DNA of 64,000 nucleotides from Trypanosoma brucei (taxonomy: Eukaryota). The DNA is taken from assembly GCA_000002445.1 (NCBI GenBank), contig CH464491.1, positions 4,576,001 to 4,640,000 on the forward strand, in the 5' to 3' direction. Positions 54,001 through 60,000 of the stretch are shown here, piece by piece. Position numbers: made by a program. The stretch's first letter is position 1. The number at the start of each line of letters is the position of its first letter.

Positions 54001-57000
54001 TACACAATCACAGCACTCTCGTATCATAATCATTATCATCATTATTACTATAATTGTTAACGTAACTAACATGCATAAAATAATGGAAATAAACAAAATA
54101 TAAAATGAACCAAATTAGAATATCACTCACTTTCTATATCCTATCACCCTACAAATTTCACTCATTTTCACCGTCATACATGTCTTACTAAAATTTTAGA
54201 TTTTCACATTTTGCAACGTTTTTACAATAGTTTTAAAATATGTCATATTTTAATAAATTTAGAGAATTCTCTCAAAACAGGAATTATTATAAATTTTCAT
54301 AAGTCTCACAAAATTGATTAAAAATACTTAAAATAATACCAAACTCGTAAAAGCAGCATCCATGAGAGCTAATTTGTTATTTACAATGGAAATGTAATCA
54401 CAACATTTTGGTTCAGGCTTTCCCTGTCCATCAATGAAATCAGTCCAAGTGCAAACAGATTTCTTTCCCTCCTTAGGTTTGCGTGGCGCGTTGGCACATT
54501 TATCTGGGTCTGTATACTCGCTACAATTAGGGTCTTCTGTTGATAGAGTTCCATCTGTTCCTTGAATTGTCTGCGTTTCTCCATCATTGGGTTTGCAGTG
54601 GTTTCGCTGTCCCCTTCCCATTTGCAGTCGTTTGCTTTGCAGGTCACGTTTGTTGTGTAACGCTTGCTCTCTGCACGCGTCGCTAAAGTTTTCTGCCAAA
54701 TTAGCCTCATGTGTTGCTGCAGAATATCGTTCGCCTGCTCCTACCCCGCCTTAAAAGCAGACAGATTGTTGCAGCGAAACTGCCACACGCCACTGTAAAA
54801 AAACCGCATGCAGCCGCTGAGGCCACCCTCCAGCTTTTGTCCCAACGAAAAAAGAATTTGAAACCGCGAGCAGCGGAAAGTGCAGAACTGAGATTCACAA
54901 ATTCAAAATGAAAAAAAGCGTAACGGCGGCACGGTAAAAATGAATATGAGAAGAATTTAAGGTAGGATGTCTGTTGCGCATAAGGTCCAGGCTTTACCGA
55001 AAAAAAAAAACAGCCGCTGCATCGCTAGGAAAAAAATGGCGAATTTTGAAAAAATAATATTGAGTCGATGTGGGGATGGAAATAAAGGTAGAAAAAATTT
55101 AAGCAAAGATATCTGCTGGAGGAAAAATAGTTGGAGTATTCACGAAAAAAAGAGCTTCTACATCACATAAAAATAATAAATTTAAAATTCTAACCCTAAC
55201 AACATTTTCTAGAAATTTTAACACGAATAACCCTAACCCGAAACACCTGAACCCGATAACCCGCTAACCCGGGTTTAAAAAAGGTAAGCCCCCCAAAAAA
55301 CGAAATCAGCTGCTGAAAAAAAAAACGTGACAAAAAAAAGAAAAAAATTAAAAAATGAAAAGGAAAAAATTTTTTAATTAAAAAAATAAAAAACAAAATA
55401 AATTATAAATTCAAATTAAAAAATAAAAAAATTAGTGAAAATTGAAAATAGAAAATTCCAAAAATCTGAAAATCTGAAAATCTAAAAACCTAAAAACATT
55501 GAAAACAAAAAAAAAGGAAAAAAAATCAAATCGCGAAAAAACAAATTAAAATTAAAAAAAAGGTGCCTGCGCGAGGGGGCGCGGGGGGGGGAAGGAGGGT
55601 TAGTGTTCGCATAATAAAACAGCTGCTGCATCACTTTTAAAAAAATTTAAAAAAAGTGGTGTAAAAATAAAAAAAGAGCCGGTGCATCATAAAGAAAAAG
55701 TTGAAATAAAAAACACAAAAAGAAAATCAAACGTCGGCGCAAAATAAAAAAAAGGATTAAAGAAAATAACTGAAAAAAAAACTAAAAAGATCGAAAACAA
55801 AAAAAGTGGCGTCAAAATAAAAAAGCGAGAAAAAGAAAAGAGGAAAATTAACCCTAACCCAGTAACCCTAAGCCTAACCCTAAGCCTAACCCTAACCCTA
55901 ACCCTAACCCTAACCCCCCTAACTAACCCCCCTAACTAACCTAACTAACCTAACTACCCCCCCCCCATTCCTACCTAACAACCCCCCCCCACTTCCACAA
56001 AAAAAAACCGGAAAAGAAGAAAAAAATTTTAGTTTTCAGAAAATATTTCTAGACAATCAGACAGTCAACTTACAAAAACAGTTCAAATTTTTTCGGCTGG
56101 TTTTAGGTGTTAAAATATATCAAATGGCAAGAATTATTTAAGAAAAAGAGGGGAGAGGGATTAAAAAAGCAAGGCCAAAAATGCAGCAGAAACCACGGTG
56201 AGGGCGAATTGTTTGTTTAGGAGGAAGCTAGAAGAGCGGCAACCAGGAGTTACTGGACCAGTGCCTTCGACAAAAGTAATCCATCCACAAAAGGCTTTCT
56301 TGCCTTGGGGAATCGGGCCAGTTATTTTGGCGCAATCCTCGGCATTTTGGGCGGCAGAGCACTTATCTGTTGTACCTGCTCCTGTAGCTTGCTCTCCTGC
56401 TCCTGCTTTGGTTGTCTGTTCTTCCCCATCTTTAGGTTTGCAGTGTTCTCCCTTATCCTCTGTAGTGCTATTCCAATGGCAACCGGTTGTCGGGCAGGTC
56501 GATTTTTTTTTGTGATTATTGCAGTTTACTTTTTGAAGTTGTGTTTTGCTTTCTTTACTGTTGACGGCTCCTGTTGATGCTGTCTGTTGATCGACGCTGG
56601 TGTAATGGGCTCGCTTTATTACCGCTTTTACTTGCTGCTCGAGTAGCGTGATTGCTGCGTTGTACTCTGTTACTTGGCTATTGTAGCTTGGTCGTTTCCG
56701 AAGCTCACTTGCGATGGTATCGAGGTCCTTCACCCATTGGATTGCATTTTTTTTAAGTTGTTTGTTCTGGGCGCCGTTGGTAATCTTGACGCAGCATGCG
56801 GTACCACCGCCGTCGCAGTTCGCCTCGCTTTTCAGGCCACCGATGTAAAGGTCATTTGTTCCCACCCGGGTGTGGGCCATTACCGCGTTTATTAAGTTAG
56901 TTATCAGACCGTCTGTGATCACAGTTCCCTCCGTTGCCGGGCATATTTGGCGTAGGTTTGGCCACGCTGAGGCTTGTGGGGGTGCCGCTAGTTCCCATGC

Positions 57001-60000
57001 CGCTTGAGTTGTTTGGGCGTCAGCACAAGGTTTATGCGATGCGGCGTTGGCTGAACCACAGACACAAAGAAAAGTGCCTGCGAGCGTCTTGGCCGCCGGT
57101 GGTGTTTCGCCTGTTGCGCAGCTGGCTGCGTAGGCTGCAGCCGCCCCAGAGAACATCGGCGCAGTTTCTGGTTGGTCCATATTGCTTGGTTTCTTTCCGT
57201 ATATAGCCTGGTACAGTTGGGTTATTAATGCTGCATCGTCTTTTGGTTTGTTTTGTTGGCCTGTCTTGTAGAATGCCTCTAGGTCATAGGCGGCGTCCGC
57301 TAGCTGTGCTATAGTTGGTCTAAGGTTTGCGAGCTGCTGAGCACTCGCTTTGTCAGTGCTGAACTGCTCCTTGAAGGTTGCTTCGTTTTTGTCCGTTTCT
57401 AGATATAAAGCCGCGTCTGCCCAGGTCGTCCATTTTGATTTCCAATCATCTGGTGCACTCTGTGGCGGATTGTCTTTTGCTTTTGGCTTGGTATCCTCCG
57501 TCTTTTCGGTGAGCAGTTGCCGCCAGGCAGCCGGCGCCATCGTCATATTTAACTTGTAGATGTCTGAAGCTTTTTGTGAGGCTGTTGTTATGGTCGGGTC
57601 GAATGTGATTGCGCCATCTGCGAGCTGTAGGGTTTTGCACAAAGGCCCAAAGACGCCTGTATTATCGCCGTTGGCGAAGCTATGGACTGTCCTAACGACA
57701 GCTACAAGTATAATGAAGTGAAAAGCTATTTTTATCATTGACTGCTTGCACTTGGTCTTTTTCTTGCTGCCCTGTTGTTGGGTTTGAGCTTGAGTGAGGT
57801 GATAAACGGATAGACACAGATGATAGAGGCCATGGTTTGCACTAATTCTTCTGCTGTGCATCTTAAGTAGAGATTAGCTCCTCCACACTGTTCACTAGTT
57901 AACAACAATTTGGTCAAATTTACTAAAGCAAAAATATATAAGTTAGTTTTCAGTAGTCGGGATATCCTTTTTATGACTGCTGACAGGGCCTTTTTAACTT
58001 GTTACACAACTTCTAGAACTTTTTGCGCCGTTTTTGGTTTATACTACATTTTTTTGCTCAAAACTGAGTTCTCTAAAAAAAATGCGCTGTTCTTCCGCGC
58101 CGTCCAACATTGAAAGAGCTTGTTCACTACCCTTGTTGTTTTCTAATCTTCATGGTGCCATAATCGGCACTATCTATAAGCCGCGCTGGCAGCACGAGTC
58201 ATTGCTGTGTGAAAACGGTCGTTTTGTAACATTCATCGTTGACGAACCTTTTGGCTGCTGCTTGGATCTTCCTTTCCGTACTTCTTTAAAGATCCATACT
58301 TCGCATGTTGCTTGCACCAGCTTCTGTTTTTTTTAAATAATCTGTTCTTTCTTTTTTAGACTTGAGCCGTGGTTTCTATATTTTTTCGTTTTAGAGTTTC
58401 TTCCTCTGTTGGCGTCTGCTTTTCACTTTTAACCCGAAAAACGAATGCTGGTGTAGCTGGCTTTGTCTTGTGCTGTCGGTTCTTGAATCAGTTCTGATCT
58501 CTCTGTTATCTTTAGAACGGAAGAAATGCCGGCTAGAAATTACTACTATTTCGTACACTCTTCCATTTGAGCTCCAGTCAATTGCTTGTTCTTTAGTAAC
58601 ATCATTTCTATTGCCATCCTCTAATGCGTTAAATTAGTCGGTGTTAACACTTTTTTTATTGGAACACAGAAAACAACAAAACCTCGTTGTTTTCAAATTA
58701 CTTTGACAGTCGCCGGCCATGTGTTTTCACTGAAACTGTATGTTGTCACACTGTGGTGTGATAGCATAACCATACTATTGGTGTTTCTGCTTTGCTTTTA
58801 CATAGCCTATTTTTGGTTGCTGGCGGTGTCGTTTGAGCTACACGTCTATCTACAGTCTTTGACATTCGAGCTCTATAGCTATTTTTGTCTATCCCTTTTA
58901 TTTTATCTACGGTATAAACCATAAGTCTACCGCACATCTGGTGTATAGAACTTCGCGGATATACTTCACAGTCACAATATCCATCAGAGAAAGTTTTGAA
59001 AATGATGTTACTACTTTTTTAGCCAAGCTTGCGCTGAATTCTCGCTGCTTCATCGTCAAACAACTGCAGCCTTTTAATTTTTAAATACTTTAATTTTATC
59101 TCTGTAGTCCATCACCAGTATCATTTTCAGCACAATATTCGTATATACACACTTACAACACTCTCTTATCATTATTATTAACTTTACTATTATATTTATT
59201 ATTATTATAACCCTAGCAATACCCATGAAATAAACGGAATAGTAAATAAATCGAATTAGAATAGCATTCATTTTTCACGACCTCACACACTAATAATTTA
59301 TATTTATAGATCACTATTATGCAAAACATTTATATTTCAAATTCTTAAGAATATATCTATTTTTCTCATATTCACCACAAAAGTCTTAAAATATATTAAT
59401 TTTAAGAAGATTGTAGCAAAGTTTACAAGAAAGAAGTTTTCATGAAATTGAACAAAAAACATTTTTTAAAACTTAATTATAGAAGAAAAAATGCAGACCA
59501 AAGAGGTGCCTTAATCACAACAGCATTTATTCTTATGGTATTTGTATTTTGTTCCACCTATATTTCCTGCATCTTCTTGTCTTGGTGTGTAATTTGGATC
59601 CACTACGCACTTTTTATTTTCGCCTGTGCCCTCCCATTTGCAGCCATCTTTGCACTCCCCTTCAGTTTTCTTTTCGGAGCACTTTGAAGTGGACTCTCCT
59701 GCTGTTGTGGCTTTTGATGTCTTACGTTCGCATTTGTTATCTTTTTCATTGTATTTGCATCCATTTTTATTTCCACATTCAGTTTTGTCATTTATGTCAG
59801 TGCATTGTGATTTTTCTTTGTCTCCTATTTGTGAAGGCATGGTGGCACAGTGTGCGCTTCTGCTTTCTTTTTTTGCTAGCACTAAACCGAGTGCTGCGGA
59901 AAATTGTTCTTCTCCAGCTAGCTTGCCGATTGTTATCTGTTTCGCTGATTTTGAGTCGAAGAACGTGGCCGCCACATTGGTTATCTGTTGCCACACCCTC

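Follow-up and report, generated by a model that had tools for sequence, protein, structure and literature searches.

A telomere-type hexamer tract behind an array-internal VSG of Trypanosoma brucei, probably kept from a telomeric-type VSG 3' flank

The closest described counterpart of the locus analyzed here is the VSG221 expression site of Trypanosoma brucei Lister 427, where one T2AG3-like tract lies between the variant surface glycoprotein (VSG) gene VSG221 and the telomere (AJ271641 nt 211-322; Glover et al. 2007, PMC1807955). This tract is 106 bp long in total and has two parts, a 46-bp run of T1-2AG1-6 and then 10.5 degenerate repeats of the form T2AG G/A G/A/C, and after telomere deletion all mapped healing events fell within it (PMC1807955), a telomere-seed role that was later confirmed (Glover et al. 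2013, PMC3610638). Across 17 expression-site clones, the distance from VSG to telomere was 200-1590 nt (Hertz-Fowler et al. 2008, PMC2567434). According to the passage of Hall et al. 2013 that cites Aline & Stuart 1989 (PMC3708902), there is a conserved organisation 3' to telomeric VSGs, and TTAGGG-like repeats mark telomere proximity. In another parasite, Plasmodium knowlesi, intrachromosomal telomere-like repeats are found beside SICAvar/kir gene islands, as summarised in PMC9131526. Here, we analyzed a 64,000-nt stretch of T. brucei DNA (assembly GCA_000002445.1, contig CH464491.1, positions 4,576,001 to 4,640,000, forward strand; “the window” below, with all positions given in window coordinates), in which a TTAGGG-type tract follows an intact minus-strand VSG inside a VSG array. 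The tract is an element of a known kind at an internal position, where it is less expected, and one of four paralogous copies in the window. We consider it probable that it belongs to a telomeric-type VSG 3' flank that was kept in array-internal cassettes via old segmental duplication and reshaped by local slippage.

The tract has a G-rich part, proximal to the VSG, and a core of telomere hexamers distal to it (Table 1). Read from 55916 to 55849, the core consists of TTAGGG four times, TTAGGC, TTAGGG, TTAGGC, TTAGGG, TTACTGGG, TTAGGG and a final TTA; Tandem Repeats Finder (TRF) lists it as 11 copies with 87% matches, the longest perfect TTAGGG run is 4 units, and exact TTAGGG occurs 9 times across 55840-56005. 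The G-rich part is about 80 bp long, with G runs of up to 10. Perfect duplications are found by TRF in the tract, of a 13-mer (2.5 copies, 55910-55941) and of a 9-mer (2.9 copies, 55931-55956), and the variant unit TTAGGCTTAGGG is present twice. Considering that slippage can copy variant units and telomerase cannot, these duplications show local slippage and not telomerase synthesis. Counting the hexamer dimer TTAGGGTTAGGG with up to one mismatch gives 11 matches in the window, against 0.11 expected. Counted from the stop codon, the G-rich part begins at 165 nt, and counted from the 16-mer of the VSG 3' untranslated region (UTR), at 110 nt; the clean core begins 190 nt after that 16-mer, and at its distal edge the tract switches abruptly to a T-rich block.

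Compared with the VSG221 tract in bloodstream expression site 1 (BES1; VSG221 is also called VSG2), the target tract is alike in lying just 3' of a VSG, with its G-strand in VSG sense and further non-telomeric DNA after it, and in opening with a G-rich T1-2AGn run that is followed by 10.5 degenerate hexamers, including a C variant at position 6. It differs in that its G-rich part is longer (about 80 versus 46 bp, with the G runs mentioned above) and in that it is followed by more than 55 kb of array DNA and no telomere. Both the position of the tract, within about 200-300 nt 3' of the VSG and after the 16-mer, and its two-part composition agree with a telomeric-type flank as described in PMC1807955. 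The 200-1590 nt range of VSG-to-telomere distances also brackets both hexamer positions behind the target VSG, at 165-312 and 871-966 nt after the stop. By analogy, we conclude that the flank of about 1 kb that contains the tract (a class II flank, defined below) would be a telomeric-type VSG 3' flank, with the tract corresponding to the seed tract proximal to the telomere proper and not to the terminal junction. A functional telomere is not what is found here: the core spans only 68 nt, perfect runs are short, and the sequence runs on. Where a true telomere would be expected, 0.2-1.6 kb after the VSG, there is only a degenerate patch of 3-6 units, after which come a VSG fragment, 70-bp repeats and another 55 kb.

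The tract lies in a VSG cassette that is complete by its parts, having a 70-bp repeat upstream, N- and C-terminal VSG domains, and the 3'UTR 16-mer. An initial annotation, made from the sequence alone, had placed the intact VSG at 56161-57738 and the 16-mer at 56107-56122, and both are borne out, by the Pfam domains VSG_B and Trypan_glycop_C and by an exact TGATATATTTTAACAC, respectively. It had likewise been right about a TTAGGG-type tract with the G-strand toward the telomere side, which TRF places at 55849-55916, about the A-rich block and the second degenerate hexamer patch on the distal side, the latter recovered by TRF, and about the conserved element, VSG fragment and 70-bp repeats beyond. 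Its description of the tract needs correction: about 13 perfect TTAGGG units had been counted where there are 10.5 degenerate ones with at most 4 perfect in a row, and a spacer of about 170 bp had been given in place of the two distances measured above. A clean tract grading into degenerate repeats had also been described, and both parts are indeed present, in the reverse order, the degenerate part (55917-55996) being VSG-proximal and the cleaner part distal. The suggestion of a genuine telomere junction is not supported, as the tract of near-identical description at the VSG221 site is proximal to the real telomere (PMC1807955). Finally, it had gone unnoticed that the layout of the tract occurs three more times in the window.

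The target VSG is identical over 1545/1545 nt (100%) to T. equiperdum OVI SCU68767.1, on scaffold CZPT02001062.1; the database model for this OVI counterpart has 500 aa, and the open reading frame (ORF) at 5977-7047 is likewise on record. Exact protein look-ups with the target VSG (in 525- and 566-aa forms), the VSG of the second copy described below (copy B) and the ORF of the VSG fragment gave no match, nor did a homology search with the C-terminal domain alone as query.

The window consists of two convergent VSG arrays, with 16-mers on the plus strand up to 44153 and on the minus strand from 50321. The 11 flanks that begin with a 16-mer fall into two classes. In the seven class I flanks, the 70-bp repeats of the next cassette follow about 170 nt after the 16-mer; in the four class II flanks, TTTTTAGGGTTA-type hexamers come 95-190 nt after it, followed by a T-rich block. 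We named the class II flanks copies A (the target, from 56107, minus strand), B (from 50321, minus strand), C (from 7460, plus strand) and D (from 44138, plus strand). Their G-strand is in VSG sense in all four cases, with 10.5 hexamer units in A, 2 in B, and 1.5 each in C and D. The full order of 16-mer, hexamer(s), T-rich block, second hexamer patch and GTGATGCAGCGGCTCTTT-like motif is complete in A, B and C, with second patches at 55195-55290, 49418-49443 and about 7950-7990, respectively. Copy A alone adjoins a VSG that is intact and whose C-terminal domain is complete. Copy D is cut short by an insertion of about 500 bp that we take to be a RIME, judging by its 5' end and poly(A). This insertion sits where the plus- and minus-strand VSG arrays converge; between it and the end of the homology to the copy B unit (44803-46260) there are only short ORFs, and tblastn at 1e-6 found no VSG signal there.

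For aligning the copies, we used local BLAST and Smith-Waterman alignment with shuffle controls, since a global MAFFT alignment of the A and B flanks, whose tracts differ in length, misplaced the GC-rich element that lies inside the T-rich block. Since BLAST statistics are unreliable in T-rich DNA, local alignment scores were compared with those of dinucleotide shuffles and expressed as z-scores. Before the tract, A and B align with z=13.9; after the tract, z was 6.3 for A versus B, 4.9 for B versus C and 3.0 for A versus C, compared with 1.8 for A versus a class I flank as a control. By BLAST, A is collinear with B for more than 4 kb (56160->52141 with 50382->46260) at 58-71% identity, and this collinearity reaches far past the flank (54464->52141 with 48624->46260). 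Identity of A to B is 68% before the tract and 62% after it, and the second patch and the motif after it align across A, B and C. Judged by these alignments, the multi-kilobase A/B unit is an old, diverged segmental duplication, and the sequences to either side of the tract are parts of one unit. Because A and B are collinear and the distal blocks of the copies are homologous, both junctions of the tract are inherited and common to the copies.

The T-rich blocks of A (55300-55848) and B (49445-50185), both on the minus strand, have in common a T-tract periodicity of about 7.7 nt, with units such as TTTTTAGG, TTTTCAGA, TTTTTAGA and TTTTTGGA. This 7.7-nt periodicity fits telomere-type repeats that have decayed and expanded in T better than it fits bent DNA with helical phasing. 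The exact 18-mer CTAACCCTCCTTCCCCCC is confined to the GC-rich elements of A (55586-55603) and B (50033-50050), with 0 matches expected; its surroundings are only about 62% identical. A search against Rfam (E<=0.1) over 44000-58500 gave no match, so the GC-rich element is not an RNA known to that database. The T-rich block with its GC-rich element may resemble minichromosome subtelomere repeats, reportedly described by Weiden et al. in 1991 as 74-bp GC-rich repeats with about 155 bp of bent AT-rich DNA between them; as a periodicity of 7.7 nt is not helical phasing, our reading does not draw on this resemblance. Beyond the second patch, the block at 54700-54976 on the minus strand matches 12163-12439 on the plus strand over 277 bp at 95% identity, in oppositely oriented arrays, and a wider match around it, including the VSG C-terminal fragment and its 16-mer, has 85% identity over 867 bp. 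The conservation of the 277-bp block exceeds that of the flank DNA around it by far, which suggests that the arrays recently underwent gene conversion with each other.

Other described cases agree with the locus in part. The flanks of Aline & Stuart, as far as they are outlined in PMC3708902, also have TTAGGG-like repeats in a conserved multi-part flank common to several VSGs; they are described at telomeres, whereas 4/11 array-internal flanks carry such repeats in the window. A literature search, in a collection lacking most subscription-journal papers, the genome and VSG-archive papers among them, gave no explicit account of such tracts behind array-internal VSGs. Vertebrate interstitial telomeric sequences (ITSs) are likewise short internal TTAGGG-type runs whose length varies between paralogous sites. 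Unlike ITSs that arose by break repair or fusion, the target is neither head-to-head nor a clean insertion in unique DNA, and has the appearance of part of a larger, telomere-derived flank that came down together with its gene. In P. knowlesi, to go by the summary in PMC9131526, telomere-like repeats accompany internal antigenic-variation genes, suggesting a subtelomeric origin of internal clusters; organism, gene family and repeat are different, and the target is in a subtelomeric array with its repeat at a fixed cassette position.

Under the reading that we prefer, that of a telomeric-type flank kept inside the array, the unit would consist, in VSG sense, of the VSG, the 16-mer, a spacer of about 110 nt, the T2AG3-like tract and a T-rich block of about 550 nt enclosing the GC-rich element, continued by the second short hexamer patch, the conserved motif and block, and the next cassette. 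A telomere-proximal VSG cassette would have been taken into the array long ago together with its whole VSG-to-telomere interval, and would then have been multiplied by segmental duplication, the opposite strand included. Since then, the hexamer tract may have behaved as a microsatellite, with copy A keeping or regaining its full length and the other copies contracting. In its present place the tract is probably needed for nothing. By analogy with the VSG221 site, it might have a latent activity in seeding a new telomere after a distal break, by which the intact VSG would become telomere-adjacent; by analogy with BES1, it might also offer telomere-type downstream homology for recombination with expression sites. 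Several findings weigh against the preferred reading. The tract has about 5 deviations in 68 nt and is far cleaner than the flank divergence of 30-40%, and because it is cleaner than its flanks, pure ancient inheritance is insufficient without slippage, conversion or constraint; either homogenisation by slippage or a refresh by conversion from a telomeric donor could account for it. For the T-rich block, the A/C homology is marginal (z=3.0), the target tract was matched to that of the expression site through a published verbal description and not by sequence alignment, and the target tract is unspanned by an independent assembly, the short-read OVI scaffold breaking at 55989.

The cleanness of the tract bears directly on a competing account, in which a contracted array cassette like those of B-D was recently overwritten by gene conversion, with a minichromosomal or expression-site VSG as the donor. 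The converted stretch would have ended, on its 3' side, within the hexamers, so that the VSG and the full tract were imported together. VSG gene conversion is bounded by 70-bp repeats upstream and by 3' homology downstream, and the target VSG does have a 70-bp repeat upstream (59126-59165). The sole full-length, fairly clean tract is also on the sole copy with an intact VSG and complete C-terminal domain, and it is cleaner than the A/B flank divergence predicts. A recent import should leave a boundary, however, and none is visible, identity to copy B falling from 68% to 62% across the tract without a clear step; the duplicated variant units, moreover, speak of tract evolution in place. Such a conversion is rather unlikely in our view. 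Evolution in place could also mean that the tract never had an ancestor of telomeric length, and that a seed of 1.5-2 units grew by slippage or by limited telomerase addition at break repair. The range from 1.5 to 10.5 copies at the same site of paralogous flanks fits such growth, as do the perfect tandem duplications of variant units (TTAGGCTTAGGG x2 among them), and for mammals it is documented that telomerase can insert interstitial telomeric repeats when breaks are repaired, at least in the outline given in PMC7215372. Telomerase would add perfect TTAGGG, however, and neither TTAGGC nor a G9-10 preamble; a short ITS made by telomerase, with perfect repeats in otherwise contiguous sequence and none at related loci, is not what is seen, since the repeats are degenerate and preceded by G9-10 runs and the paralogous loci have 1.5-2 units at the same site. 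The two-part form and the 10.5 units also match the tract of PMC1807955, suggesting that the long form is the standard one, and we regard purely local growth as improbable.

The initial annotation had favoured a former chromosome end captured internally, through telomere-telomere fusion, through healing followed by re-joining to unrelated DNA, or through duplication of a telomeric VSG, and of these options the last is the one supported as the best reading, the flank being of the kind found 3' of telomere-proximal VSGs. For a captured end speak the G-strand orientation, which is as at a VSG telomere, and the change from degenerate to clean repeats in the direction expected at a subtelomere-telomere junction. 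A fusion should have left an inverted array, and we found no CCCTAA in the 1.2 kb that follow each 16-mer and no inverted hexamer array in an inverted-repeat scan. The best inverted match of that scan, 22 nt at 82% identity, pairs 55944-55965 in the G-rich part with 55583-55604 in the GC-rich element, 339 nt distal; it lends the captured end some support, and head-to-head fusion was rejected, as (TTAGGG)n does not abut (CCCTAA)n. Healing and re-capture at this locus fares no better: there are four paralogous copies with junctions in common, the distal DNA is homologous to the DNA past the short tracts of B and C and hence not unrelated, and with the whole unit duplicated at about 60-70% identity (over more than 4 kb for A/B), any such event would predate the duplication and not be locus-specific. 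Because the tract junctions are common to paralogous copies, a recent locus-specific capture is disfavoured, and we hold a captured end to be very improbable.

An internal telomere-type tract could, in addition, be an artefact, if the assembler had mis-joined a real chromosome end to unrelated sequence. The T. equiperdum OVI scaffold CZPT02001062.1, from a short-read assembly, does not span the tract: it matches the flank to 55989, where it breaks off into an N-gap, precisely at the poly-G with which the tract begins (its positions 1545-1720 correspond to window 55989-56273, with two N-gaps and a duplicated 3' piece). Nanopore reads that contain telomeres have also been reported to have lower quality (PMC11739655). 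Set against this, the tract measures only about 150 bp, A stays collinear with B across the join, over more than 4 kb, and the far-side sequence is homologous to what follows the hexamers in three other copies. Copy C, which has the same architecture, recurs at 99.9% in a second OVI scaffold, CZPT02001055.1, that matches window 1-16909 collinearly at 99.4-99.9%, so that the class II flank architecture is independently confirmed for copy C; by coordinate arithmetic, this scaffold is expected to end near the presumed RIME at 44304-44802. From its agreement with the two OVI scaffolds, the window represents OVI or a near-identical Trypanozoon strain, assembled more contiguously. Homology between what lies past the target tract and what lies past the 1.5-2-unit tracts in the other copies makes a chimera unlikely, and we give it hardly any credence.

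Table 1. Positions of the target cassette, the class II flanks and related features in the window.
Feature	Position	Strand	Basis or remarks
70-bp repeat core upstream of target VSG (5' boundary of cassette)	59126-59165	-	Fuzzy match; TTA-rich TRF rows 59166-59208
Intact B-type VSG ORF, 525 aa	56161-57738	-	Pfam VSG_B 9.8e-62, Trypan_glycop_C 3.8e-23
VSG 3'UTR 16-mer TGATATATTTTAACAC, exact	56107-56122	-	Pattern match
G-rich degenerate part of tract, T1-2AG1-10, with perfect local duplications of 13-mer and 9-mer	55917-55996	-	TRF
Tract core, 10.5 degenerate telomere hexamers, G-strand in VSG sense	55849-55916	-	TRF, pattern match, parsing
T-rich block, 55% T on minus strand (A-rich on plus)	55300-55848	-	Homologous to block of copy B (z=6.3)
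GC-rich element inside T-rich block	55570-55640	-	ATGCAGCAGC...CTAACCCTCCTTCCCCCC; exact 18-mer CTAACCCTCCTTCCCCCC at 55586-55603
Second degenerate hexamer patch, same orientation as tract	55195-55290	-	871-966 nt after stop; aligns with copies B and C
GATGYAGMRGCTCTTTT motif after second patch	55148-55164	-	In copies A, B and C
Conserved block	54700-54976	-	95% identical to 12163-12439 (+)
VSG C-terminal-domain fragment	54334-54600	-	tblastn with target VSG as query
Degenerate 16-mer (2 mismatches) of VSG C-terminal fragment, then class I junction	54230-54245	-	
70-bp repeat core of next cassette (VSG pseudogene 50386-51881)	53981-54020	-	Fuzzy match to core
Copy B	49320-50336	-	16-mer 50321-50336; TTAGGGTTAGGG 50188-50199; T-rich block and GC-rich element; patch 49418-49443; motif 49341-49357
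Copy C	7460-8250	+	16-mer 7460-7475; TTAGGGTTA at 7643; T-rich block; patch about 7950-7990; motif 8051-8067
Copy D, truncated	44138-44303	+	16-mer 44138-44153; TTAGGGTTA at 44247; about 50 nt of T-rich DNA, then presumed RIME
Presumed RIME insertion, about 500 bp, in T-rich block of copy D	44304-44802	+	5' end GGCGATGCCGGCCACCTCAACGTGG; poly(A) end
TAGGGTTA-like hexamer	22413-22435	+	
TAGGGTTA-like hexamer	59205-59225	-	
TAGGGTTA-like hexamer	34315-34335	+	

If the tract is indeed part of a retained telomeric-type flank, the locus would be a fossil record of array growth from telomeric cassettes. In this genome, TTAGGG-like repeats 3' of a VSG are not specific for telomere proximity, and because the marker is not specific, donor assignments that use it need care. 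On the technical side, short internal telomere-type tracts fragment short-read assemblies exactly at their position, and telomere-finding scripts could take them for contig ends or misjoins. All VSGs activated after a break at VSG-2 were immediately telomere-adjacent (Keneskhanova et al. 2025, PMC12137147), so that adjacency to a telomere appears to decide which VSGs become active after a break. Internal VSGs with a telomere-type flank would be suited to show whether it is this flank or the physical end of the chromosome that counts.

A weaker form of the same pattern extends to other flanks. TAGGGTTA, with up to one mismatch and its G-strand in VSG sense, occurs 95-195 nt after the 16-mer in 7/11 VSG flanks (background 7.4%, binomial P=3e-6). 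Within class I, a TAGGGTTA-like hexamer is present in three of the seven flanks (P=0.01), exactly at the start of the 70-bp-repeat region of the next cassette, aatagTTAGGGTTAtaatagta being an example. From these positions, a vestige of telomere repeats may persist at the 3' boundary of ordinary array cassettes as well. A bolder generalisation, which we put forward as speculative and on balance doubtful, is that VSG arrays are chains of former telomeric cassettes, each with a vestige about 100-200 nt after the 16-mer, among which the subset with a full flank would serve as telomere seeds and recombination donors. If that were true, a break distal to a full-flank internal VSG would yield a telomere-adjacent, early-activated VSG, and such VSGs might outrank other array VSGs in the activation hierarchy.

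Farther along the window, a 432-aa ORF at 62628-63926 on the minus strand has no VSG domain match; zf-C2H2_4 scored below threshold in it, with 26.6 bits against a cut-off of 27. This ORF is flanked by a 70-bp repeat at 61915-61954.

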